DNA of 64,000 bases, from positions 18,697 to 82,696 of the forward strand of contig CAKOPW010000005.1 in assembly GCA_934101115.1 (NCBI GenBank), in the 5' to 3' direction. The notes below the pieces were generated by a model. The model was not told the origin of the DNA, ran no database searches, and saw only the letters and a list, made by a program, of their open reading frames with translations. Positions 26,943-39,978 of the stretch are shown here, one piece after another. Position numbers and translations under genes: made by a program. Position 1 is the first letter of the stretch. Each line of letters starts with the position of its first letter. Source of the DNA: an uncultured Bacilli bacterium (GTDB taxonomy: Bacteria; Bacillota_I; Bacilli_A; RF39; UBA660).

Positions 26943-27020
26943 TTTTTATTTACAATAATTTTTTTTAATGGTAAAATGGTTATAGAAGAGAATAGAAGGT
27001 TTTTAAAAAGAGGTGTAATT

Positions 27021-27542
27021 ATGGCATTAAATGATTTTAAAGATATGGTTGAGAATGCTAGAAAAATAAAAGGTTATTCACAACGAGAATTAGCTAAAAT
27101 GATTGGAATGAGCCAAAGTACATATAATGATACAATTAATGGTAAAATTAAAAAACCAGATATAGATATATTAAAAAAAATTGCTGAGGAGTTAGATTTA
27201 TCTTTAGATTTAATGCTTAAAGAATCAGGATATGGTGAATCATTTTCTATATACGGAATTGATAAATATAAAAATAAATCCACTAAGGATTTAAAAAATT
27301 TAATTGATGAATATAAGAAGTCAGAACTTAAATTATTAGAATTTGATAAACAAAAAAGAGATGTTACTAGGAAAGCAAGGCAAAAAATGTTCACTACAAT
27401 TGAACATATGAAAATAATAAAAGATAGTAAAGATGGTTTATATACAATTGATAAAGCAATTGATGATGTTCAATCTGCATTTGATCAATTAGAAATGGTA
27501 GAACATAAATATGATTATAAAAAGCTACCTAAAGACTTATAA
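27021..27542 (+). CDS. XRE-family HTH regulator (candidate R-M controller protein)
   Basis: HTH GYSQRELAKMIGMSQSTYNDTINGK. First gene of the R-M operon, with a coiled-coil C-terminal extension. Confidence 0.7.
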   Translation: MALNDFKDMVENARKIKGYSQRELAKMIGMSQSTYNDTINGKIKKPDIDILKKIAEELDLSLDLMLKESGYGESFSIYGIDKYKNKSTKDLKNLIDEYKKSELKLLEFDKQKRDVTRKARQKMFTTIEHMKIIKDSKDGLYTIDKAIDDVQSAFDQLEMVEHKYDYKKLPKDL

Positions 27543-27556
27543 TCAGGAGGTACAAC

Positions 27557-29605
27557 ATGAAAAAGAAAAAATATAATGTAATTGATTTATTTGCAGGATG
27601 TGGGGGATTATCAGAAGGATTTCTACAATCCGAAAGATTTAATTTTTTAGCTCATATTGAATGGGAAATGCCAATGGTTGAAACTTTAAGGAATAATCTT
27701 GTTAAAAGATGGAACTACTCAAAAGAAGATGCTGAAAAATCAGTAATAAGATTTGATATACAAAAAACTGAGGAATTATTTAAAGGTAATTGGTCAGACG
27801 ATTCAATAAAAGATTATGGTGAAGATAATAATAAAGAAATAGTTGAAAAAGGAATGGATAACTTGATTGGTGATAAGAAAGTTGATGTTATTATTGGTGG
27901 ACCGCCTTGTCAAGCATATTCACTAGCAGGAAGAGCTCAAAGCCCAAATTCAATGAAAGATGATTATAGAAATTACTTATTTGAGAGCTTTGTTAAAGTA
28001 GTTGATCATTATAAACCTAAAGTTTTCGTTTTTGAAAATGTTCCAGGAATATTAAGCGCAAAGCCAGGAGATAAATTAGTAATAGATAGAATTTATGAAG
28101 CATTTGAAAAGATAAATTATGAAATAAGAAATCCAAAAATGCTTAAAAATGCGATTTATTCTGCTGCAGATTTTGAAACGCCTCAAGATAGACATAGGGT
28201 CATTATAATAGGAGTAAGAAAAGATTATAAAGATAATCCGGAAGATTTTTATCTAGCTTTAGATGAATTAAAATCAAAGCATCCAAAGAAAACAGTTAGA
28301 GATGCCATTGGAAATTTACCTAAATTCAAGCCTTTGGTCGAACCTAGAAAAGGTAAAAATGGTAATATATCACATGAATTAATTGGTAATGAAATTATTC
28401 CTGATCATGAAGCAAGATATAATAATTTAAGAGATATTGAAGTATTTAAAAAATGGATTAAAAATAATATGAATTCTTATACTACTGAAGAAAAGCTTAA
28501 ATTTTATACAGAAACAACTGGTAAAAAGAGCAACCATAATAAATATAGAAATTTAGATTGGGATAAGCCATCTCCAACAATTGTATCTCATTTATATAAA
28601 GATGGTTTAATGTTTATACATCCAGATGAAAAACAAGCTAGATCAATAACTGTTAGAGAAGCTAGTTTACTACAAGGATTTCCTATAGATTTTGAATTTC
28701 TTGGTTCAAATGCATACAAATACAAAATGATAGGAAATGCTGTACCTGTTCAATTTGCTAAAAATATTTCATTAGCATTATGTAATGTTCTTGATGAAGA
28801 TGATTCTAATAATATTTGTTGTGCAAAAAAGAAAGATGATGTTTTAACACTAAAAAATAATAGACCAAAAAGAGTATTAAACGTTTTGGTTGCATGTGAA
28901 GAAAGTCAAAGAGTTTGTACAGAATTTAGAAGATTAGGACATAATGCATATAGCTGTGACTTACTTAATTGCAGTGGTGGACATCCTGAATGGCATTTTA
29001 ATATGGATGTTTTAAAGGTAATTAAAGATAAAGGTGGAATTTTAGAAAATGGTGAAAAGGTAAAAATAGATGGTGATTGGGATTTAATGATAGCTCATCC
29101 ACCCTGCACGTTCTTAGCTGTAAGTGGTGCAAAATGGTATTATCACCCTGATGATAAAGGTTTACCAATTGAACAAAGAAGACCTCATCCCAAATTTCCA
29201 AATAGAGCTCAAGATAGAGAAGATGGTGCTAATTTCTTTATAGCATTAGCTACTGCTAATATAAAATATATTGCAGTGGAAAACCCTATAGGTATAATGA
29301 GTAAAAGATTTAGAAAACCGGACCAAATAATTCAACCATATTGGTTTGGTGATCCATTTTCCAAAGCAACATGTCTATGGTTGAAAAATCTTTCGCCATT
29401 AAAGCCAACAAAAATGGTTGATAAAGGTGAATATGTGGAATTAAAAAGTGGTAAAAGATTACCAAAATGGTATTCAGATGCATTAACAAAAGCAAAAACA
29501 CCAGAAGAAAGAAGAACTTTAAGAAGTAAAACATTCCCAGGCTTTGCTAAAGCTATAGCAGAACAATGGAGTAAGGAGATATTAGAAAATGAAAGTATAT
29601 GTTAG
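27557..29605 (+). CDS. DNA (cytosine-5)-methyltransferase with a second, minimal C5-MTase-like catalytic core fused at the C-terminus
   Basis: Domain 1 (aa 1 to about 410) carries motif I DLFAGCGGLSEGF, IV GGPPCQAYSLAGR, VI FVFENVPGIL and X IGNAVPVQFAK. Domain 2 (aa about 440 to 682) carries DLMIAHPPCTFLAVSG, IAVENPIG and FPGFAKAIAEQW. Confidence 0.85.
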   Translation: MKKKKYNVIDLFAGCGGLSEGFLQSERFNFLAHIEWEMPMVETLRNNLVKRWNYSKEDAEKSVIRFDIQKTEELFKGNWSDDSIKDYGEDNNKEIVEKGMDNLIGDKKVDVIIGGPPCQAYSLAGRAQSPNSMKDDYRNYLFESFVKVVDHYKPKVFVFENVPGILSAKPGDKLVIDRIYEAFEKINYEIRNPKMLKNAIYSAADFETPQDRHRVIIIGVRKDYKDNPEDFYLALDELKSKHPKKTVRDAIGNLPKFKPLVEPRKGKNGNISHELIGNEIIPDHEARYNNLRDIEVFKKWIKNNMNSYTTEEKLKFYTETTGKKSNHNKYRNLDWDKPSPTIVSHLYKDGLMFIHPDEKQARSITVREASLLQGFPIDFEFLGSNAYKYKMIGNAVPVQFAKNISLALCNVLDEDDSNNICCAKKKDDVLTLKNNRPKRVLNVLVACEESQRVCTEFRRLGHNAYSCDLLNCSGGHPEWHFNMDVLKVIKDKGGILENGEKVKIDGDWDLMIAHPPCTFLAVSGAKWYYHPDDKGLPIEQRRPHPKFPNRAQDREDGANFFIALATANIKYIAVENPIGIMSKRFRKPDQIIQPYWFGDPFSKATCLWLKNLSPLKPTKMVDKGEYVELKSGKRLPKWYSDALTKAKTPEERRTLRSKTFPGFAKAIAEQWSKEILENESIC

Positions 29606-31172
29606 AAAAATTGATGATCAATGTGTAACTCATCAAATTAGTTTGAAAAATATTGTATTTAAGGAATTCTTTAATGAGTTAAATAAATTCGAAGTTTCAG
29701 GAGTAAAAAGTGGTTATAGTGAAATGGTCAGTATTTTACCAGCAACTGATTTGAGATTTGATTCTGGATTGAAACATGTAATATCAAGAGAAGGTAATCT
29801 AGAAGTTGGCGATGTTATTGTTTTATATAAAGAAGCTGATAAGTATGAATTAGAGCTAATTAAGCCTACTGATTCAAAGTATACTTTTGTACAAGAATTA
29901 TGTGAGAGAGACAAAAGACATACTTTGCTTGATATTGAATCCAATGAAATCAAAAATGTTGATAGAAAAGAAGAATATAAAAATTGGTTAGTCAATAAAG
30001 GTAAATATACTGATGAAACTATAAAGAATTATGTAAGATATATATCTTATATTTATGATAAAGGTTTAAGCGATAAAGATTTATATACAATTAAGGATAC
30101 ATTAATCATTGATGAATTATTATCAAAATTTAAAAATCAAGAAGAATATATTCAATATAATGAACAAAATAACAGAAATCCATATTATGCTTTGTTACAA
30201 TATAAAGAATTTATTGAAAATACAAATACGCATAAGATTGATGATGTTGATAGATTAGTTGGAGCATATAATAAAATTTATTATGGAATTCCTGGAAGTG
30301 GAAAAAGCTATACCGTTGATGCTAAATTTAATGAAGAAGAATATAAAGTATTTAGAACTACTTTTCACCCTGAATATACAAATAGTGATTTTGTAGGGCA
30401 AATTATTCCTATGGTAAAAGATGATAAAGTAAAATACGAATTTCATCCTGGATCATTTACGCTTGCATTAAAATATGCATTAGAGAATAAAAATAAAAAA
30501 GTATGCTTAATAATAGAAGAAATTAATAGAGGTAATGCTTCTGCAATCTTTGGTGATATATTTCAGTTGCTAGATAGAACAGAAAAAGGAAGAAGTAAGT
30601 ATGAAATATATAACGGTCCTATTCTAGATTATTTTGAAAAAAATGGTATTAATATGAATAAAATATATATTCCATCTAATATGTGGATTATATCTACTAT
30701 GAATACAAGTGATCAAAATGTATTTACTTTAGATACTGCATTTAAACGTAGATGGAAAATGGAATATATAAAAAATGTATTTGCTGATGATGAAAAATCA
30801 AAAGAATTAAGAAATAAGGTTATTCCTTTAGGAGAAAAATATCCTAATGTAACATGGGAGAAATTTGTTAACAAAATAAATAATCATATTATTTCTGATA
30901 CATCAGGAATAAATGGTGAAGATAAACAGCTTGGTATGTATTTTGTTTCTGTTGAAGAAATTAATGATCCAAAAGAATTTGCTGAAAAAATTTTGTCTTA
31001 TTTATGGGAGGATGTTGCAAAATTAAATACTTCATATTGGTTTGGATCAATATCTTCCTATGATGAATTAATCGATTTATTTAACAAAAATTCTTTAGAT
31101 ATATTCAATTCACTATTTGATGATGAAATTAAAGTAACAGAAGAATATACAATTAAAACCGTAGGAGAATAG
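29589..31172 (+). CDS. McrB-family AAA+ GTPase restriction subunit (LlaJI R1-like)
   Basis: GIPGSGKSYTV Walker A, IEEINRGNASAIFGD, and the McrB signature WIISTMNTSDQNVFTLDTAFKRRW. About 230 aa of N-terminal DNA-binding region is unassigned. Confidence 0.8.
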   Translation: MKVYVRKIDDQCVTHQISLKNIVFKEFFNELNKFEVSGVKSGYSEMVSILPATDLRFDSGLKHVISREGNLEVGDVIVLYKEADKYELELIKPTDSKYTFVQELCERDKRHTLLDIESNEIKNVDRKEEYKNWLVNKGKYTDETIKNYVRYISYIYDKGLSDKDLYTIKDTLIIDELLSKFKNQEEYIQYNEQNNRNPYYALLQYKEFIENTNTHKIDDVDRLVGAYNKIYYGIPGSGKSYTVDAKFNEEEYKVFRTTFHPEYTNSDFVGQIIPMVKDDKVKYEFHPGSFTLALKYALENKNKKVCLIIEEINRGNASAIFGDIFQLLDRTEKGRSKYEIYNGPILDYFEKNGINMNKIYIPSNMWIISTMNTSDQNVFTLDTAFKRRWKMEYIKNVFADDEKSKELRNKVIPLGEKYPNVTWEKFVNKINNHIISDTSGINGEDKQLGMYFVSVEEINDPKEFAEKILSYLWEDVAKLNTSYWFGSISSYDELIDLFNKNSLDIFNSLFDDEIKVTEEYTIKTVGE

Positions 31173-31173
31173 T

Positions 31174-32433
31174 ATGAAATTTTCCGATAAAGTAATTTTC
31201 AAAAATGGATATGAAGAAGACAATTTTGTTGGTATAAAATATAGAAAAGATAAAATTAATATCTTTTTACCTATCGGATATAACAAGGATTATTTTAGCA
31301 CAGATGATGAGTTAAGTCCTGAACAAAAAGTGGATTTATTATTATTACTAAAGACTATTACACTAGTTAAAAATTCTAATAATGAAAAAACTGATTTTGG
31401 TGATGATATAGGGAATAACGATGAAGTCCCATATAATTCATTAATATGGATTATAAATGACTATTTTAACAATGGATTATATCAAGAAATCGAAAAAAAA
31501 TACTCTCAAAAAAGTCATGGTAAAATTAATTGGAAAAAAACACTTAATTCAGAGCATTACTTTGAAAACAATAGTGTTACATATATTAATCCTTATTATG
31601 AATCAAATATACAAAGGAGTACTTTAATAACTGAACTTAATAATTATTGTGTTCATAAAAGTTATAAATATATAGGATTTCTATTTGGAAAAGTATATCT
31701 TCCGGAATGTAATATTAGAGAAGAAAGAATTAAAGATAATATTAAATACTATATTGATGTTATTAATAAAGAATTAGCAAAATCTTTTAATGATAGAAAA
31801 AAAATGTTGTTAACTAATATGAAAAGGATTTTTGAAATGTCTTTTGAAGATAGTTTTGAGAATCAACCAACATATGGAACAAGGCGATATGAATATGCTT
31901 GGGAAAAAATGGTAAATGAAACTCTTGGATCTAAAATTGATATTAGTAAGTTTTTTCCTAATGCTTTTTGGAATATACAAGGTAAGATTGAAGAAGATAA
32001 ATCAAAATTAAGACCAGATTCTATTTTGATAGATAATAATTCAAAAAAATTATATATACTTGATGCAAAGTATTATAAATATGGAATTACTAGTAATATT
32101 TCTGATTTACCACATACTGATTCAATTCAAAAACAAATAACATATGGGGATCATATATCAAATAATCCGCACACATATGGTTTTGAAAAAAATAATATAT
32201 ATAATGCATTTATTATCCCATTTAATAAAAACAAAGAACCTTTTAAATGTGATGAGAGCATAAAATATATGGGATTTGCAAATAGTGCATGGAGAGATAA
32301 AAAGGAAACATATAATTATGAACGAATTTCTTTATTATTAATTGATACAAAATATATGATAGATTGTTTTTATCAAAAAGAACGTGCTAATCTTGAACAA
32401 TTAATTGAATTGATAGAAAAATCTTCATTATAG
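31174..32433 (+). CDS. McrC-like PD-(D/E)xK nuclease subunit (LlaJI R2-like)
   Basis: LRPDSILIDNNSKKLYILDAKYYK, a PD..D-x-K motif. Translationally coupled to the McrB-like gene. Confidence 0.7.
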   Translation: MKFSDKVIFKNGYEEDNFVGIKYRKDKINIFLPIGYNKDYFSTDDELSPEQKVDLLLLLKTITLVKNSNNEKTDFGDDIGNNDEVPYNSLIWIINDYFNNGLYQEIEKKYSQKSHGKINWKKTLNSEHYFENNSVTYINPYYESNIQRSTLITELNNYCVHKSYKYIGFLFGKVYLPECNIREERIKDNIKYYIDVINKELAKSFNDRKKMLLTNMKRIFEMSFEDSFENQPTYGTRRYEYAWEKMVNETLGSKIDISKFFPNAFWNIQGKIEEDKSKLRPDSILIDNNSKKLYILDAKYYKYGITSNISDLPHTDSIQKQITYGDHISNNPHTYGFEKNNIYNAFIIPFNKNKEPFKCDESIKYMGFANSAWRDKKETYNYERISLLLIDTKYMIDCFYQKERANLEQLIELIEKSSL

Positions 32434-32624: not shown

Positions 32625-35345
32625 ATGGATGAAAGTATTAACTTCATTAATCGGAAAATTAATGATTTGAATATTAAGATAGAAAAAAATATAGACGATT
32701 CTGTTGATAATAGGGGCTATATGTCTCAAAATATCATAAAGAGTTTAAGAGATTTAGTAGAATATATAGCATTTAAAGTATATGTAATTGAGAATAGAAA
32801 GTGTTATCTTGATTATAATCATGTTAATACTGGCTTAGCAATAAAATATATTAAATGTTTAAGTAAACATGAAATACTAAAGAACTTTCATGCTTTATTA
32901 GAAATTGGTCCTTCACATAATAGTTATAGTGAGGATGGCTCAATTAGATTAATGGTTAAATATCAAGAGTATCTTATTGATCTAAAAAGATATTATTTTG
33001 ATTTGTTTAAAGAAAAAATATTAACAAATTTATATAAATTTCCCATATTTAAAATAGACTCATCTTTATACGATTATTATAAAGAAATATATAATAAGTT
33101 AATTCAAATAAAATTTGATAATAGTGAACGAGTTTTAGGTAACGCATATTATATTAAGAAAACAAAACCTGTCGCAATAGAAGATAGAGTTTTTTATGAA
33201 TTAACATTAACACCAGCTACCGACTATGTTAATAAATTTAATAGAATTATTTTTTATTCCCCAGTTAGAATTCCGGATAATTATGCTATTAAAATAGGCT
33301 ATGTAAGGAAAAATATAAAATCATTTAAATCAGAAGTAGAAATCAAGATAATTAATAATTATGAGATATTTATCAAACCGGCCGAAATAAATAGTTTGTA
33401 CAAAATATTTGGTATTAATAAAAGAGTATCATATCGTGCAAATGAATATGATTATTTTATGCGATTATTAAAAAATAATCGTTGGACATTAAATCATATT
33501 ATTAATTTGAATGATGATGGATTTGAAATAATTAGACAGGAGTCATCAGTTTATAATACTCATCATTTGTTTGAATTGTTAGAAATGATAAGAAATGTTA
33601 TTACTAACAATAAACCTGGTCACAATGTTTTAAACTACTTAATACATGTATTGAGAAATTCTGTAGTTATTGATCAAATAGGTGATGAGCAATGTAAAAT
33701 ACTATCAGATTTATATCTAGAGTATGGATGTAATGTTTTTGAAACTATGCCATATGCTTCTTCATTAAATGGTCATAAAATATCTGTATCAGATTTATTT
33801 GAAATAATTGATCCAGTAAATAGAGAACATGAGTTCTTTGGAAGAAAGATAACTGATTTATGCAATTCGACAAATAGGATTTATTTTTCTTTTAAGGAAT
33901 TAGGTTATGATTCAGAATATGGTAAAAAACTTATAAAAGAATTTAATAAGCGCGTTTATTACAAACATACAGATAGATATTTAGAAACAATTGGAAATAA
34001 AGTCTATATAAGAGGATTTGAAGAAAGTACGATAAAAATTATAGATGTTTTAAAAAGTAAAACTAATGAAAAATATTCTGATTATAAAAATATGTATGAT
34101 ATGTTTTCAATTTTTAGCGATTATGAATTTACTGATAGTATCAAGAAAAATATTTCTGAAAAAATATATATTAATTCAAAAGTTGGTTTAATATATGGCT
34201 CTGCAGGAACAGGCAAAACTGAAATGATTAAAATAATATCTAAAATATTTGATGGTAAAAGAATTGCTTTTTTAGCCAAAACTAATGCTGCTCTAAACAA
34301 TATTAAAATTCGAGTTGGTAAAGAAGCAATGGATAACTATGAATTTTATACTATTGATAAATTTATTGATGATTCTATAAGAGATAGTTATGATTTAGTT
34401 GTTGTGGATGAGTGTAGTATGGTAGAGAATGATATAATGCTTCAAATGTTAAAGAAAAACAATTATGATTGCTTACTATTAGTTGGTGATATATATCAAA
34501 TTGAAGCAATTGAGTTTGGTAACTGGTTTAGATTTGCAAAGGAATTGATTCCTGAAAATTCATATGAACTAACTGAAAATTTTCGAACTACGAATCATGG
34601 ATTAAAGAATTTATGGTCTAAAGTAAGAAATTTAGATGATGGCATTACCGAGAAAACAATTGATGAAGCTTATTCAGAAATATTAAGTGAATCAATATTT
34701 GAAAATAGAGAAGATGAAGAAATTGTTCTATGCCTTAATTATGATGGCCCATATGGGATTAATAATATAAATAGATATTTGCAGATGACAAATAGAAATG
34801 AACCAATAGAATGGGGAATAAATACATATAAGGTTGGAGATCCAATTATATTTAGTGATGTAAGGAGATTTTCTAATGTTTTATATAATAATCTTAAAGG
34901 AAAAATTCTAAAAATTGAAAAGAATGAAGACAGCATAACTTTTGAATTATTTGTGGAAAGAAGAATTTCTGATTTCGATGCCTTTGCAAATAACATTAAA
35001 GTTATTTCTAGGGAAGATGATGGATCGGTTATAGAAATAAAGGTATTACGAAAGGATGATGATGATAAAGATGATGAAGTAGGATATATTGTTCCTTTCA
35101 CGGTATCCTATGCTACATCTATACATAAATCGCAAGGTTTAGAATTTGATTCTGTTAAAATTATTATTTCTGATGAGTCCGAAGAATTAATTACTAAAAA
35201 TATATTTTACACTGCAATAACTAGGTCTAAAAATCATCTTAAAATATATTGGAGTCCAGAATGTCAAAATAAAGTAATAAAGAACATGAGGGATTATACT
35301 TTAAAAGATGATTTAATTATTATAAAAAATAAAATGAAAAACTAA
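32625..35345 (+). CDS. SF1 helicase (RecD/TraA-like, AAA_30 plus UvrD_C) with about 500-aa uncharacterised N-terminal region
   Basis: Walker A GLIYGSAGTGKTEM, Walker B LVVVDECSMV, and C-terminal motif VSYATSIHKSQGLEFDSV. Nothing recognised in aa 1-500. Confidence 0.7.
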   Translation: MDESINFINRKINDLNIKIEKNIDDSVDNRGYMSQNIIKSLRDLVEYIAFKVYVIENRKCYLDYNHVNTGLAIKYIKCLSKHEILKNFHALLEIGPSHNSYSEDGSIRLMVKYQEYLIDLKRYYFDLFKEKILTNLYKFPIFKIDSSLYDYYKEIYNKLIQIKFDNSERVLGNAYYIKKTKPVAIEDRVFYELTLTPATDYVNKFNRIIFYSPVRIPDNYAIKIGYVRKNIKSFKSEVEIKIINNYEIFIKPAEINSLYKIFGINKRVSYRANEYDYFMRLLKNNRWTLNHIINLNDDGFEIIRQESSVYNTHHLFELLEMIRNVITNNKPGHNVLNYLIHVLRNSVVIDQIGDEQCKILSDLYLEYGCNVFETMPYASSLNGHKISVSDLFEIIDPVNREHEFFGRKITDLCNSTNRIYFSFKELGYDSEYGKKLIKEFNKRVYYKHTDRYLETIGNKVYIRGFEESTIKIIDVLKSKTNEKYSDYKNMYDMFSIFSDYEFTDSIKKNISEKIYINSKVGLIYGSAGTGKTEMIKIISKIFDGKRIAFLAKTNAALNNIKIRVGKEAMDNYEFYTIDKFIDDSIRDSYDLVVVDECSMVENDIMLQMLKKNNYDCLLLVGDIYQIEAIEFGNWFRFAKELIPENSYELTENFRTTNHGLKNLWSKVRNLDDGITEKTIDEAYSEILSESIFENREDEEIVLCLNYDGPYGINNINRYLQMTNRNEPIEWGINTYKVGDPIIFSDVRRFSNVLYNNLKGKILKIEKNEDSITFELFVERRISDFDAFANNIKVISREDDGSVIEIKVLRKDDDDKDDEVGYIVPFTVSYATSIHKSQGLEFDSVKIIISDESEELITKNIFYTAITRSKNHLKIYWSPECQNKVIKNMRDYTLKDDLIIIKNKMKN

Positions 35346-35479
35346 TAAGTATATACATATGTATGTGCTTTTTTGTATTAAAATATATTCATTGAATATT
35401 ATAATAATATACCGATAGCGGTATAAATATATTGAAAAATCATACTGGCAACGGTATAATGTAATTAGAGGTGAAAATT

Positions 35480-36406
35480 ATGGAATTTATGACTACAAAA
35501 GAAGCTGTACAAAAATGGAATGTTAGTGAAAGAAGAATACGAAAATTATTACTAGATGGAAGAATTGAAGGTGCTGTAAAAGTAGGTAATAATTGGAATA
35601 TTCCTATTAATGCTAATAAACCAGCTGATAAAAGAAGCATGAAATTAGATAATACTGAATTTAAATTTGATTTACCTGATAATTATTTTGATAAAGTTGA
35701 TGAATTAAATAAAGAATTAAATTCTAAAAGACCTATATCAAAAGAAACATTAAAATCTTTAAAAGAATCTATAAATTTAGAGTGGACTTATAATAGTAAC
35801 GGTATAGAAGGAAATACACTAACTTTAAGAGAAACACAAGTCGTTTTAGAAGGTATTACAGTTGGTGGTAAATCTTTAAAAGAACATTTGGAAGCTATTA
35901 ATCATGAACAAGCAATATTATTCTTAGATGATCTTATTAAGGATAAAGAACCAATCACAGAATGGAATATTAAAAATATTCATCAATTAGTATTAAAAGA
36001 AATAGATAATGATAACGCTGGTAAATATAGAGATGAAAATGTAAAAATAAAAGGTGCTACACATATTCCACCAGATTATTTAATTGTTCCTGAATTAATG
36101 GAAAAATTAATTATTAAATATGAAGATTGGAAAAAATATCATCCAATTATTAGAGCAGCATTATTACATGGAGAATTAGTTAAAATACATCCATTTGTTG
36201 ATGGTAATGGCAGGACTTCAAGATTAGTTATGAACTTATCTTTAATGAATAGCGGATATCTTCCAGTAATTGTAAAAAAAGAAAAAAGATTAGAATACTA
36301 TAATGCTTTAGATAAAGCACATACTACTGGGAATTATACAGATTTTGTTAAATTAGTTAATGAATTAGAAATTGAAATGTTAAATAAATATTTAGAACTG
36401 TTATAA
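35480..36406 (+). CDS. Fic/DOC-family protein with N-terminal HTH
   Basis: Fic motif HPFVDGNGRTSRL. N-terminal excisionase/MerR-like HTH KEAVQKWNVSERRIRKLL. Confidence 0.85.
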   Translation: MEFMTTKEAVQKWNVSERRIRKLLLDGRIEGAVKVGNNWNIPINANKPADKRSMKLDNTEFKFDLPDNYFDKVDELNKELNSKRPISKETLKSLKESINLEWTYNSNGIEGNTLTLRETQVVLEGITVGGKSLKEHLEAINHEQAILFLDDLIKDKEPITEWNIKNIHQLVLKEIDNDNAGKYRDENVKIKGATHIPPDYLIVPELMEKLIIKYEDWKKYHPIIRAALLHGELVKIHPFVDGNGRTSRLVMNLSLMNSGYLPVIVKKEKRLEYYNALDKAHTTGNYTDFVKLVNELEIEMLNKYLELL

Positions 36407-36817
36407 AAAATAGCGAGAAAAAATATTTCTTGCTATTTTTTTAAATAAACAAAACAAATGTTCTGATACATGTTGCTTAAAACTAATTTGTGTGTTAATA
36501 TGATAGTGTTATAAGCGGACACGAAAAAAACATGTTATAAACATGTTCGCTTGTACTGGTAGCTGGTAACTACCGATAAGAATTAAATTGCCTTTCGGCT
36601 TACACAAAACGAGAACAATGAATTGATTAACAACACGACTCCTATTCTCATTTATAATGATACACAAAAAATGTTTTTGTGTCAATGGGTATAATAACAG
36701 AAGTTTACATATTAGTCAATTCTGAAAGGAGGATTAATATGTTTTTTAATTATTTATTATAGTATTTAGGTAAAGTAGTTACCAGTTATCTCAAATTTGA
36801 AGTAAGGAGAGATAAAC

Positions 36818-37567
36818 ATGACAAGAAAAATTTTAAAAAATATTTTTGATAACTTAGAACAGTCATTATTTAATGATATGAATATACGTATTGAGCATGA
36901 TTTAGAGGATGGTAAATATAGAGAATATTTAGTTAAAAATGTCCTTGAAAAAATTATACCTTCAAAATATAGTATTACAAATGGTTTTATTATTGATAGT
37001 GATAATAATATATCCGATGAAATGGATATAATTATATATGATAGAAATTATGTGCCACCTTTTTTTGATGAAACTTATACTGTAGTACCAATAGAGGCAG
37101 TAATTGTAGTAATACAGGTTAAAACCACACTAACTGCATCTACATTAAAAAATAGTATCACAAATTTAAACTCAATTGATAAACTTAATGCTAAAACTGG
37201 TGGAAAAATAATATCTGCAACATGTGACTTAATTGAGGAAAAGAGATATATTTGTCCATACAAAGTTATAGTAGCTTCTAAGACTGATTATGTTGATGAA
37301 CATGATTTTGCAAGTGATATGAAAAATATTGATATTATTTATATTGTTGAAAAAGATAAATCATTAACCGTAAAGCATAAAAAAAATATAAAAGCTGTTG
37401 TTTGTGAAAATAAAGAAGAACTAATAAAAAATCAAAGCAACTATGAATTAGAAGTGATTAAAGAAAGTAGATTAGCATTTTTTGCTTTGAATTTATTGGA
37501 AAAGATGAAACTAATAAATAATTCAATCATAATTAATTATGAAGAATATATAAAGGGGGCTAAATAA
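36818..37567 (+). CDS. PD-(D/E)xK-like nuclease-fold protein (candidate effector)
   Basis: DIIIYD...IEAVIVVIQVK resembles a restriction-endonuclease-like core. About 130-aa C-terminal region is unassigned. Overlaps the next gene by 1 nt. Confidence 0.35.
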   Translation: MTRKILKNIFDNLEQSLFNDMNIRIEHDLEDGKYREYLVKNVLEKIIPSKYSITNGFIIDSDNNISDEMDIIIYDRNYVPPFFDETYTVVPIEAVIVVIQVKTTLTASTLKNSITNLNSIDKLNAKTGGKIISATCDLIEEKRYICPYKVIVASKTDYVDEHDFASDMKNIDIIYIVEKDKSLTVKHKKNIKAVVCENKEELIKNQSNYELEVIKESRLAFFALNLLEKMKLINNSIIINYEEYIKGAK

Positions 37568-38490
37568 TGAGTAATTCATTGACTGAAGATTTTAATAAGT
37601 TTGTAGAAATTATTTCGCTAAATAGTAAAGAAGAAGAGGATATTAAAAGTAAACATAATAGTCTTATCAATATGATTATTGCTGATCCACCAAAAGGCTA
37701 TAATATTGTTAAAACAAGGCTTAGTGGTTCATATGCAAAGCATACAGTTTTAAATGAATATAACGTGGATAAACTACCAGATGTTGATATTATTACAATT
37801 ATAGATTCTTGTGATAAAAGTGTAGATGAGATAAATGCTGATTTTTTAAACTATTTTGAAGATAAAAAAGGTAAAGTAACTTCAAATATTAGGCAGCAAT
37901 CTAATTCTATTGGAATAATATATTCTAATATAAGCGTTGATATGGTAATTGGTATTCTTAAAGATGACAAATTAAAAATATGTTCTAATAAAAAACATGA
38001 TTGGATATCATCGAATGCCTTGATACATATTGATTACATGATAAAAAAGAATAAAGAATATGAAGGATTCAGTTATTATAGTTTAATGAAACTTTTCAAG
38101 TATTTAAATAAAGAACAATTGAATAATAAATTAAAGTCATATACATTAGAACAATTGATTCATAAATGTTGTCCAATTCCAACAGTAGGATTAAGATTAT
38201 ATCAAGCATTTGCTAAGACACTTGATAATATAAAAGAAATATCATTAATTACGGAAATTAGAGATTGTTGCGATGAAGATAAGGATGGTTATGATGAAAA
38301 AGATGTATTGATATTTGATTCCTTTAAAGAAGAAATTGCAAATTACTCTAGTTTAGCAAAAGAAGCATTAGATGGTAACAGAAAAAAATGGCAAGAGATA
38401 TTTGGAGATAGGTTTCCATGCCAACCAAATGAAATAGTAAAGAATGAGGCAAATTATGACAAAAGTCATACACCATGGTGTTATAAATAA
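37567..38490 (+). CDS. SMODS/CD-NTase-like nucleotidyltransferase
   Basis: Pol-beta NTase signature LSGSYAKHTVLNEYNVDKLPDVDIITII, i.e. GS...DxD. Confidence 0.5.
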   Translation: MSNSLTEDFNKFVEIISLNSKEEEDIKSKHNSLINMIIADPPKGYNIVKTRLSGSYAKHTVLNEYNVDKLPDVDIITIIDSCDKSVDEINADFLNYFEDKKGKVTSNIRQQSNSIGIIYSNISVDMVIGILKDDKLKICSNKKHDWISSNALIHIDYMIKKNKEYEGFSYYSLMKLFKYLNKEQLNNKLKSYTLEQLIHKCCPIPTVGLRLYQAFAKTLDNIKEISLITEIRDCCDEDKDGYDEKDVLIFDSFKEEIANYSSLAKEALDGNRKKWQEIFGDRFPCQPNEIVKNEANYDKSHTPWCYK

Positions 38491-38941
38491 AAAAAATATA
38501 GAAATATCTATAAAAAAATATGACTTTAAGATTCTTGATTATAATGAAAATAATGAATACATAAAAACAATTATTGAAAAAGATTACGCAAAAAGTTTTA
38601 ATATAGATTTTAATGGGATAATTAAAGTAGAATGTATAATAATGCGTAAGATGTATGATATGTTTTGTGTTTATACGTATCCAAAATTTAAAGAAATATC
38701 TAATATAATTCCAAAGAAGGCATTTTATCATATGTACGAAGATGGTAGTATTTGTTATGCGCCTCCTAAAAGACCATTGGTTGAAAAATGGAGTTTAGAA
38801 GATTTTATAAGTTCTATAGATTCCTTTTTTCATAACTATTTTTCGATTGAATATATTGGAGAAGGCGAATTATTTCAACTTGAACATGGTGAAAAAGGAT
38901 TAATACAATATGAATTTATTTATAGAGTTTCAGAAAATTAA
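38444..38941 (+). CDS. small E2 (UBC-fold)-like protein
   Basis: HMYEDGSICYAPP resembles the E2 HPN...G.IC active-site region. 165 aa. Overlaps the upstream gene. Confidence 0.4.
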   Translation: MRQIMTKVIHHGVINKKNIEISIKKYDFKILDYNENNEYIKTIIEKDYAKSFNIDFNGIIKVECIIMRKMYDMFCVYTYPKFKEISNIIPKKAFYHMYEDGSICYAPPKRPLVEKWSLEDFISSIDSFFHNYFSIEYIGEGELFQLEHGEKGLIQYEFIYRVSEN

Positions 38942-38949
38942 GTGTTGAT

Positions 38950-38998
38950 AAAAAAAGAGCATATATAGCTACGTGAGCTATATATGCTTTTCTTATGT
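38950..38998 (+). terminator. rho-independent terminator after the three-gene cassette
   Basis: agcatatatagctacgtgagctatatatgct followed by tttctt. Confidence 0.55.
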
Positions 38999-39402: not shown

Positions 39403-39657
39403 TTGGTTATTATGAGAGAAATACAAATTAACAGAATTTATAAACATTTTAAAGGAGACTATTATTTAGTTGTTGGTGTTGGAACTTATTCAGAAACACA
39501 AGAAAAATGTGTTATTTATAGAAAATTATATGAAGATGGCTCTTTATGGATTAGACCAATGGACATGTTCTTAAGTGAAGTTGATCATGAAAAATATCCT
39601 GATGTTAAACAAAAATATAGATTTGAACTTCAAAATATTAAAAGTGTAGCTAAATAA
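39403..39657 (+). CDS. DUF1653-like small protein
   Basis: YKHFKGDYYLVVGVGTYSETQE...WIRPMDMF pattern. Confidence 0.45.
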   Translation: MVIMREIQINRIYKHFKGDYYLVVGVGTYSETQEKCVIYRKLYEDGSLWIRPMDMFLSEVDHEKYPDVKQKYRFELQNIKSVAK

Positions 39658-39669
39658 AGAGGTAAAAAT

Positions 39670-39978
39670 ATGAAAACAATTACAGTATGTGGAAGTTTAA
39701 AATTTTATAAAGAGATAGTGGAAATAGCTTTAAAAATGGAATTAGAAGGAAATTGTATGTTAGTTCCAATATACAATCCATACAATACGGACAAAGATGC
39801 ATTTACTGACGAAGAAATAAAGATGATTTCAAAAATGCATTATGAAAAAATAAAACTGTCCGACGCAATTTTAGTTGTAGATGTTGATGGTTATATCGGT
39901 AGCAGTACAAGTAAAGAGATAGAATACGCTAAATCACTTAATAAAGAAATCCTTTACTATAGTGATTTAACTAAATAA
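39670..39978 (+). CDS. hypothetical protein (possible nucleoside 2-deoxyribosyltransferase-like fold)
   Basis: TVCGSLKF...ILVVDVDGYIGSSTSKEIEYA. Weak pattern only. Confidence 0.25.
   Translation: MKTITVCGSLKFYKEIVEIALKMELEGNCMLVPIYNPYNTDKDAFTDEEIKMISKMHYEKIKLSDAILVVDVDGYIGSSTSKEIEYAKSLNKEILYYSDLTK

Follow-up and report, generated by a model that had tools for sequence, protein, structure and literature searches.

The three-gene cassette described here, carried in the window (the whole 64,000-nt stretch of DNA that was analyzed), is very probably a self-contained 2.5-kb anti-phage module of the type II-short (E2-only) CBASS class, for which a mechanism is proposed below. It encodes a NucC-family nuclease, a CD-NTase cyclase and a small E2 protein with the UBC fold, and neither an E1 nor a JAB domain was detected within ~10 kb of the cassette or in any related locus; therefore, the trio was assigned to type II-short CBASS, in agreement with the preliminary description, which had proposed a minimal CBASS system with E2 as the only ancillary protein. 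The same description called the effector and the E2 divergent and poorly characterized; for the class as such this no longer holds, since E2-CBASS has now been studied (Yan et al., bioRxiv 10.1101/2022.05.25.493364; Xiao et al., PMC12948482). The class is known, but judging from its sequence the cyclase lacks both the terminal glycine and the E2-binding docking motif. Since the public entries for these uncultured gut Bacillota label every component 'hypothetical', the annotation given here is of use.

Cassette architecture and the leader

The features of the module are listed in Table 1. The preliminary description correctly located three open reading frames on the forward strand and a strong terminator behind them, and the strings it quoted were all found: MD...E...QVK in the first gene, GSYAKHTVL...DVDIITI in the second and HMYEDGSICY in the third. 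Its overlaps were right only in part: the nuclease and cyclase genes do share 1 nt (TAATG), whereas the 47 nt given for the cyclase and E2 genes stem from a longest-ORF call. All E2 homologs (21/21) begin with MTKV, which corresponds to position 38456 and is preceded by GAGG 6 nt upstream; the true E2 start is therefore probably 38456 and not 38444, the overlap probably 35 nt and the protein 161 aa long.

Table 1. Features of the CBASS module in the window.
Feature	Position	Strand	Remarks
Structured leader	36450-36817	+	conserved, travels with the cassette
Candidate promoter	TTGCTT 36473-36478, 17-nt spacer, TAATAT 36496-36501	+	putative, from reading of the sequence
Long-range helix arms, leader	36560-36573 and 36775-36788		inverted-repeat arms
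Palindromic hairpin, leader	36662-36682
Hairpin and T-run, leader	36707-36742, then T-run 36742-36747		contains invariant AAGGAGG 36726-36732
Mini-ORF, leader	36739-36762	+	MFFNYLL, then stop
Nuclease gene	36818-37567	+	249 aa; NucC family
Cyclase gene	37567-38490	+	307 aa; clade-D-like CD-NTase
E2 gene	38456-38941	+	161 aa from homolog-supported start; ORF opens at 38444 (165 aa)
Intrinsic terminator	38955-38991	+	16-bp stem, 5-nt loop, T-run; readable on both strands

The three genes show translational coupling, the NucC effector with the cyclase included, and the trio recurs in 13 or more loci, spread over at least five genomic contexts, of uncultured gut and rumen Bacillota. Gene order and overlaps (1 nt; 32-35 nt) are the same across the 13 fetched loci while the flanking genes differ; the three-gene arrangement is far beyond chance, and the operon architecture is conserved and mobile. 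Together with a structured leader of ~370 nt the trio forms one module with boundaries at 36450-38950, and similarity to loci in other genomic contexts begins at 36449-36471. A terminator scan returned three terminator-like sites in 4.4 kb compared to 0.7 expected. In the window, the cassette is part of a chromosomal defence island, in which it follows an LlaJI-type R-M system, a PDC-S53 helicase and an HTH-Fic protein.

The long-range helix of the leader is maintained by four different arm sequences, each at p<=0.016 compared to dinucleotide shuffles; the consensus fold includes one compensated pair, and the RNA fold has a z-score of -2.56. An Rfam search with leader and cassette returned no credible family. 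As a structured mRNA element or attenuator, the leader may control the module. Its inverted-repeat-flanked segment additionally holds a strong promoter-like sequence on the minus strand (TTGACA-17-TATCAT). Phase variation by an invertible promoter was considered and found unsupported: none of the six window-type loci (two of them from a metagenome scan) was inverted, and the polarity was the same in all eight subfamily leaders, the assemblies showing the majority orientation only.

The cyclase, its tail and the E2 protein

The preliminary description had placed the second gene product near the SMODS/CD-NTase nucleotidyltransferases, and the protein indeed matched solely such models: Pfam SMODS at 1e-13 (above cut-off), the PADLOC CBASS cyclase at 9e-35, with 15 PADLOC CBASS cyclase models matched full-length, and B. 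cereus CdnD (BcCdnD; PDB 9sa4) at 5e-16. The top 16 Foldseek matches were all CdnD (best 3e-15), while CdnG reached just 1e-9. The NCBIfam CBASS cyclase models scored 75 and 54 bits as compared to an equivalog cut-off of 200, and the protein therefore does not count as an equivalog of these curated families. The motifs SGSY (53-56), PDVDI (71-75) and VDM (124-126, with D125) as well as Lid1 S149 and Lid2 H154 were recognized; SGSY is invariant in all 54 cyclase family members (54/54), as are PDVDI, G54, S55, D72, D74 and D125. By its nearest structures and motifs the enzyme is classed as a clade-D-like CD-NTase, and its intact GS...DxD...D active site, together with the coupled, presumably nucleotide-sensing effector, places the cassette in CBASS. 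According to the rules for clades C and D, Ser or Thr at the first XGSX position combined with a Lid2 His leads to cAAA (PMC13424991), and the specificity motifs thus predict that the product of the window cyclase is most likely 3'3'3'-cAAA. The signal may differ within the family, since 31 of the 54 members (~57%) carry a Lid2 Gln, which under these rules points to cAAG.

The cyclase core ends with FGDRFP (279-284), leaving 23 residues. These include the conserved tail Y297-D-K-x-Q/H301-T302-P303-W304-C305-Y-K, which has no terminal Gly; across the family the tail reads QTPW[C/S/Y/N]x1-3, with W304 invariant and a Cys often adjoining it, and none of the 54 members has a Gly among its final 8 residues. 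The tail is under purifying selection in the cyclase frame: in the overlap with the E2 gene, 56/181 changes are synonymous in the cyclase frame as compared to 15/181 in the E2 frame, and the variants at E2 residues 6/7 (H, R, L, P) come from third-position substitutions in the codons of cyclase T302 and P303. As only ~23 residues follow the core, the cyclase cannot hold the 47-aa E2-binding motif, a helix with a three-stranded sheet, and beyond residue 282 the model has no more than a short turn and a one-residue strand.

The third gene encodes a UBC-fold, E2-only ubiquitin-conjugating-like protein, as had been surmised for the 165-aa reading. Neither result that the preliminary description had named as refuting it, an NTase of the AbiEii or MNT families or a small protein without UBC fold, was thus obtained. 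H92, G97, C100, a PPxRP motif and H144 are invariant, with C100, H92 and H144 present in 20/20 E2 sequences. The S. marcescens E2 (SmE2) is described as requiring C101, H87 and H152, and from order, spacing and fold rather than from a residue-level superposition we infer that C100/H92/H144 are the equivalents of these residues. An AF2 model of the concatenated cyclase and E2 chain, built from unpaired alignments with an artificial junction, gave a pTM of 0.86, whereas a confidently folded cyclase alone would account for ~0.66 at most, so that a defined packing of cyclase and E2 is implied. A programmed frameshift yielding a cyclase-E2 fusion was rejected: the A-rich run that some loci have in the overlap is not conserved, with only AAAA in the window, and in loci L012 and L013 the E2 can start at a downstream ATG overlapping the cyclase stop.

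We propose that the E2 protein controls the cyclase through the conserved C-terminal tail by means of its Cys100/His92/His144 centre. In S. marcescens, the E2 acts as protease and ligase; this mechanism cannot simply be transferred because the terminal Gly and the ~47-aa motif are missing, and because the tail reads QTPW[C/S]x1-3 instead of Gly-x, the chemistry or the site of attachment and cleavage would have to differ. There is nevertheless a real chance, if short of an even one, that the E2 works exactly as SmE2 does, clipping the last 1-3 cyclase residues and linking the new C-terminus first as a thioester, then as an isopeptide; the small residue 305 (Cys or Ser) would take the place of Gly406. 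This is at odds with the loss of linkage caused by G406V and G406L in the S. marcescens system, with the Tyr or Asn found at residue 305 in three family members, with the missing helix/beta-sheet docking motif and with the K159-equivalent Lys, which is not conserved (Ile in the window E2, Lys in most relatives). Quite conceivable too, though short of being favoured, is an E2 that acts as a non-covalent clamp, binding the tail and either holding off or priming the cyclase, or that employs other chemistry such as a C305-C100 disulfide. The absence from all 54 cyclases of the Gly used in all studied type II CBASS conjugation, the Cys often located beside the invariant W304 and the confident domain packing of the fusion model are in line with such a role, whereas the invariant Cys/His/His centre argues for catalysis and C305 is not invariant.

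Gut phages carry ~85-aa homologs of this E2 (131 clusters, 19 viral contigs; hhalign 98.5%, E 2e-15), which share 43% identity with this CBASS E2 subfamily over 82 columns. They are devoid of the Cys loop, of either catalytic His, of helix 1, strand 1 and the C-terminal helix; no match was found in the GenBank phage genomes (INPHARED) or in PHROGs. UEV proteins such as Mms2 and Tsg101 are catalytically inactive E2 variants, and the phage mini-E2 likewise presents an E2-derived scaffold without catalytic Cys, but it is far smaller (85 aa), and its specific relationship is to this CBASS E2 subfamily. It is a candidate anti-CBASS decoy: temperate gut phages may have captured this E2 and hollowed it into a UEV-like protein that would have a dominant-negative effect by binding the cyclase or the cyclase tail. 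These catalytically empty fragments are a testable candidate for a new anti-CBASS class; if the decoy reading is true, they would be the first anti-CBASS protein directed against the ubiquitin-like regulatory step and not the nucleotide signal, and would show phages turning a regulator of host immunity to their own use. The wider proposal of a distinct E2-CBASS branch that combines a Gly-less, Trp-centred tail, a phage decoy E2 and control by a leader/attenuator is tentative and, taken as a whole, rather unlikely.

The NucC-family nuclease and the proposed mechanism

The first gene product matched DUF6602 in Pfam (7e-32), NucC in PADLOC (1e-35; residues 2-246 on model positions 10-237 of 243) and, in the PDB, the NucC proteins of Serratia, Vibrio and E. 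coli (5e-17 to 1e-9, with 5e-17 for Serratia NucC), and these matches identify it as a NucC-family PD-(D/E)XK endonuclease effector. The nuclease-like character seen in the preliminary description thus gains a family, while its unassigned C-terminal region is covered by the full-length PADLOC match; this half follows the NucC model, but does not align residue by residue with the solved NucCs. D70, E93 and K102 are conserved, and the core reads MD-x29-QVK. In E. coli NucC, the active site is ID-x30-EAK (D73, E104, K106), the cAAA pocket consists of R53, Y81 and T226, and H136 and Y141 form the gate loop. In the alignment to this protein, D70 and K102 match and Q100 takes the place of the Mg ligand E104; among the cAAA-contact positions, Y78 corresponds to Y81 and K50 replaces R53. 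The Gln aligned with a metal-binding Glu might indicate a decayed system with a catalytically dead NucC-like protein, which is, however, very improbable: Q100 is invariant throughout the subfamily of the window nuclease, Gln occupies this position in 23/139 diverse representatives of the DUF6602 superfamily (17%), each retaining D70, E93 and K102, and the three genes are all intact and under purifying selection (sequences at 46-97% identity). This reading was rejected because QxK recurs as a natural variant.

The nuclease activity of NucC is switched on by cAAA (bioRxiv 10.1101/694703). We therefore propose, by analogy, that the clade-D-like CD-NTase responds to infection by making a cyclic trinucleotide, which for the window protein would most likely be 3'3'3'-cAAA, and that this signal binds the NucC-family nuclease and shifts it from trimers to hexamers; non-specific DNA degradation would follow and end in abortive infection. 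It is scarcely credible that the locus has no part in cyclic-nucleotide defence and is instead a toxin-antitoxin or Abi module of the NTase type (AbiEii/MNT-like) whose small protein is unrelated, as the Pol-beta GS...DxD signature on which this would be based is generic and common to these families, no AbiEii or MNT model matched the NTase, its structural neighbours are all CD-NTases and its partners NucC and E2, and the SMODS, full-length PADLOC, PDB and Foldseek results already refute it.

Comparison with known systems

The one model in which E2-only CBASS has been dissected is that of S. marcescens, a clade-G system signalling by cGAMP, in which the C-terminal glycine is central. The cassette shares with the type II-short class an E2 protein in the absence of E1 and JAB and, as far as the motifs indicate, the Cys and two His of E2-only systems, but it has neither a Gly at or near the cyclase C-terminus (0/54) nor a long clade-G cyclase with a C-terminal E2-binding motif. 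Clade alone does not exclude membership, since 26% of E2-CBASS cyclases lie outside clade G (Xiao et al., 2026, PMC12948482). A family that keeps Cys/His/His without the glycine tail and docking motif probes the generality of the 'one-enzyme ubiquitin cascade', and could reveal another attachment chemistry.

Compared to the S. marcescens E2-CBASS, composed of CdnG and E2 (PDB 8hsb/8yjy; Yan et al.; Xiao et al., PMC12948482), the window cyclase is clade-D-like and 307 aa long instead of clade G and ~400 aa, has no room for the 47-aa E2-binding motif (SmCdnG 352-398: a helix and three strands), carries a QTPW[C/S] tail instead of the conserved C-terminal Gly and is predicted to make a cyclic trinucleotide instead of cGAMP; moreover, the two E2 proteins are too distant for HMMER to join. 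The closest cyclases are those of the type II CBASS of B. cereus and Enterobacter cloacae, which consist of CdnD, Cap2 E1-E2, Cap3 JAB and Cap4 (9sa4 in sequence, 5e-16; 7d4o in structure, 3e-15, TM 0.71). With these the window cyclase has in common the SGSY, PDVDI and Lid2-His motifs that predict cA3, whereas the cassette lacks both an E1 adenylation domain and JAB, its effector is NucC instead of the SAVED-nuclease Cap4, and the cyclase tail does not terminate in Gly/Ala. The effector family, finally, is that of the type III CBASS of E. coli MS115-1 and P. aeruginosa (CdnC/CdnD, HORMA, TRIP13 and NucC) and of the type III CRISPR-associated NucC of Serratia and Vibrio metoecus. In contrast to these systems, the regulator is an E2 protein and not HORMA/TRIP13 or Cas10, and the window nuclease has Q100, K50 and a divergent C-terminal half; it resembles the NucC of these systems in the core D-x30-(E/Q)xK, in Y78 matching Y81 and in the predicted logic of cAAA signalling.

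Composition of the three-gene cassette

The preliminary description had proposed, within the AT-rich window (~25% GC), a minimal CBASS with an E2-only ancillary protein. Its three open reading frames were found on the + strand exactly where it had placed them, each preceded by a Shine-Dalgarno sequence, and the strong terminator said to close the cassette was recovered as a 16-bp-stem hairpin followed by a T-run (terminator-like sites in a scan of 4.4 kb: 3 observed, 0.7 expected). The claimed overlap of one base between genes 1 and 2 (TAATG) stood, whereas that of 47 nt between genes 2 and 3 probably did not: since all 21 database homologs of the gene 3 protein begin with MTKV, encoded from window position 38456 and preceded six bases 5' by GAGG, the E2 most likely starts there, giving 161 aa and an overlap of 35 nt.

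Features of the cassette, its surroundings and related loci
Feature	Location	Strand	Remarks
HTH regulator and LlaJI-type R-M system	26976-32433		left part of defence island
SF1 helicase, PDC-S53	32625-35345		906 aa; PADLOC 1.6e-292, almost end to end
HTH-Fic protein	35471-36406		Pfam Fic 1e-23; PADLOC SoFic/PDC-S04 ~1e-34
Structured leader	36450-36817		~370 nt, upstream of gene 1
Long-range leader helix	36560-73 / 36775-88		two arms
Promoter-like TTGACA-17-TATCAT	36657-36685	-	near-consensus; points away from cassette
Gene 1, NucC-family nuclease	36818-37567	+	249 aa
Gene 2, CD-NTase	37567-38490	+	307 aa
Gene 3, E2	38444-38941	+	165 aa as longest ORF
Terminator	38955-38991
Two small genes	39403-39978		downstream of terminator
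Mini-E2, phage-like loci	L015:5998-6252; L016:790-1044; L017:4089-4343; L018:2548-2802; L019:5998-6252
Further mini-E2	viral contigs L020-L038; L041:6001-6258

The upstream gene, previously called nuclease-like, matched Pfam DUF6602 (7e-32), the PADLOC NucC model throughout its length (1e-35; residues 2-246 aligned to positions 10-237 of the 243 in the model) and the solved NucC structures of Serratia, Vibrio and E. coli (5e-17 to 1e-9), and its product is by sequence a NucC-family nuclease. In the alignment, D73, K106 and Y81 of E. coli NucC correspond to D70, K102 and Y78, while R53 is replaced by K50 and the Mg ligand E104 by an invariant Gln (Q100). Decay of the nuclease via Q100 is very unlikely: a whole-library phmmer search yielded 139 diverse DUF6602 representatives, of which 23 have Gln at this site, and all 23 retained D70, E93 and K102, so that Q100 is a natural variant.

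The SMODS/CD-NTase-like reading of the middle gene was borne out by Pfam SMODS (1e-13, above cut-off) and by 15 PADLOC CBASS cyclase models (best 9e-35). NCBIfam CBASS cyclase models matched with scores under the equivalog cut-offs. The nearest solved relative was 9sa4, a clade-D cA3 synthase from Bacillus cereus (5e-16), followed by the CdnD enzymes of E. cloacae and P. aeruginosa; Foldseek with the cyclase model likewise ranked CdnD enzymes at the top (3e-15, TM ~0.71), with CdnG far lower (1e-9, 12% identity). Grouping with AbiEii or MNT families, named beforehand as the outcome that would speak against this reading, was not seen in profile searches, and the product is accordingly classified, from these matches, as a CD-NTase. 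Among 54 cyclase homologs (alignment A3), there is no variation at SGSY (53-56), D72, D74 and D125 and virtually none in PDVDI. At Lid1 the residue is Ser or Thr; at Lid2, 23 homologs, including the window protein, have His and 31 have Gln. The clade C/D rules that have been summarised for BcCdnD assign cAAA to Ser or Thr at the first XGSX position combined with Lid2 His, and cAAG to Lid2 Gln (PMC13424991). Because the window cyclase combines the first-position Ser of SGSY with Lid2 His, its product should be 3'3'3'-cAAA, the molecule that activates NucC (bioRxiv 10.1101/694703). With SGSY invariant, the subfamily may be split into cAAA and cAAG makers; the same NucC-like effector partners all members despite the Lid2 split.

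Gene 3 had no sequence match in Pfam, NCBIfam or PDB and matched seven PADLOC CBASS E2 models (best 2e-10). Its AF2 model, built with 20 homologs (pLDDT 76, pTM 0.71), showed an alpha-beta4-loop-alpha-alpha layout, which is the arrangement of a UBC domain, and returned nothing significant in Foldseek; the E2/UBC-like assignment thus held, the absence of a UBC fold having been its declared counter-evidence. Neither an E1 (ThiF) nor a JAB domain was found near the window cassette or in any related locus, as had been claimed. The cassette is a genuine E2-only CBASS whose effector is of the NucC family, in agreement with the E2-only system that the preliminary description had proposed.

Mobility, defence island and leader

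Thirteen fetched loci carry the cassette; they come from metagenomes and MAGs of the human gut and the rumen and are labelled uncultured Bacilli, Erysipelotrichaceae or Firmicutes. Gene order and overlaps are identical in all of them, with at least five different sets of flanking genes. At the nucleotide level, loci in other contexts are homologous to the window from ~36450 to ~38950, and on this basis the mobile unit is ~2.5 kb, leader included. Within the window, recG and addAB bracket the defence island that houses the cassette. The LlaJI-type R-M system (27557-32433) comprises a C5 methylase (682 aa), an AAA_5 McrB-like subunit and an RE_LlaJI endonuclease, and the helicase of the candidate defence family PDC-S53 directly precedes the Fic gene and the cassette; the HTH-Fic protein, which stands between helicase and cassette, is possibly a further defence or toxin element made up of one gene. 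Of the two small genes, one encodes a DUF1653 protein (84 aa, 2e-23) and the other a protein of 102 aa with a weak similarity to nucleoside 2-deoxyribosyltransferases (E 0.02); they are not conserved beside the cassette in other loci. In one related locus (L001:1910-3942), a GmrSD-type restriction enzyme and a truncated phage-integrase fragment adjoin the cassette, a neighbourhood consistent with movement between defence islands.

The leader is more conserved than the genes behind it, has no Rfam match and folds with z = -2.56. Its long-range helix covaries: four subfamilies retain it, each with arm sequences of its own (p 0.001-0.016 each against shuffles). The leader further has a hairpin with one compensated pair, a hairpin that with a U-run encloses AAGGAGG, invariant in 8/8 leaders, and a hairpin covering the NucC Shine-Dalgarno sequence. 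The leader also contains a 7-codon mini-ORF (MFFNYLL*), left intact by an in-frame insertion in the related locus L010. Possibly, the leader is an attenuator or riboregulator. The minus-strand promoter-like sequence, also conserved in L001, lies inside the repeat-flanked part of the leader; an invertible promoter (inverton) was unsupported, no inverted copies being found.

Phage-borne mini-E2 proteins

A genome scan for E2 relatives also detected five loci with an ORF of ~85 aa in phage-like surroundings (consensus MIKVTFEKDYSKDFNIKFYGLIKV...DDVITIIDMYFANYFNIEYIGKPLF). Profile-profile comparison by hhalign aligned this mini-E2 with residues 35-137 of the E2 family (98.5% probability, E 2e-15, 43% identity, 82 columns). 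The catalytic Cys loop DGSICYAPPKRPLVEKW is cleanly deleted, Asp, Gly, Asn or Ser occupies the H92 position, and the H144-bearing segment as well as the N- and C-terminal helices are absent. Mini-E2 proteins, all of 83-97 aa, occurred in 19 IMG/VR viral contigs and 131 protein clusters, one entry being labelled Caudoviricetes. In temperate gut phages, their genes sit with other small genes, upstream of terminase, in the region that separates the replication/integrase module from the terminase/portal genes, and the viral loci contain neither cyclase nor NucC. Since E2-mediated modification activates the cyclase of the Serratia marcescens (Sm) E2-CBASS (Yan et al. bioRxiv 10.1101/2022.05.25.493364), it is plausible by analogy that the catalytically empty mini-E2 is a dominant-negative factor, making it a candidate anti-CBASS decoy; a non-exhaustive literature search found no such decoy-E2 mechanism described.

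Cyclase tail and comparison with the Sm system

In the Sm system, C101 and H87 of the E2 clip the residue after cyclase Gly406, a thioester and then a K159 isopeptide follow, and H152 is specific to E2-only systems (Yan et al. bioRxiv 10.1101/2022.05.25.493364; PMC12948482). This Gly is highly conserved, G406V and G406L abolish linkage, and the cyclase docks the E2 via a C-terminal helix-plus-three-strand motif, residues 352-398 (bioRxiv 10.1101/2022.05.25.493364; PMC12948482). E2-CBASS cyclases, 74% of which belong to clade G, exceed other type II cyclases in length (PMC12948482). The window E2 family is alike in keeping invariant catalytic-type residues (C100, H92 and H144), whereas its cyclase is clade-D-like and only 307 aa long, with a core ending at FGDRFP (279-284) and a tail that carries a Gly in 0/54 homologs.

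Instead, the tail follows the consensus Y-D-K-x-Q-T-P-W-[C/S/Y/N]-x1-3, the residue after W being C in ~43, S in ~7, Y in 2 and N in 1 of the 54. Its coding sequence shares bases with the opening codons of the E2 gene, and the differences there fall at the third cyclase codon position in 103 cases and at the other two in 22 and 56; 56/181 changes are synonymous in the cyclase frame and 15/181 in the E2 frame, and the H, R, L and P variants at E2 residues 6 and 7 correspond exactly to wobble-position substitutions in the codons for cyclase Thr302 and Pro303. In two cassette loci (L012 and L013) the E2 starts further downstream and TPW is still kept. Third-position bias, cyclase-frame synonymy and this retention of TPW mark the tail as a functional part of the cyclase. 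When cyclase and E2 were modelled by AF2 as one concatenated chain, the model, made from unpaired homolog rows and with a low-confidence artificial junction, reached pLDDT 87 and pTM 0.86; as ~0.66 would be the maximum were the cyclase alone confidently placed, the model implies a defined packing of the two proteins.

E2-only CBASS is already known as a class. Taken together, the window subfamily is a new variant of it, because it departs from the Gly tail and docking motif of the studied system yet keeps the E2 catalytic centre, with the phage mini-E2 and the leader as further novel, testable elements.
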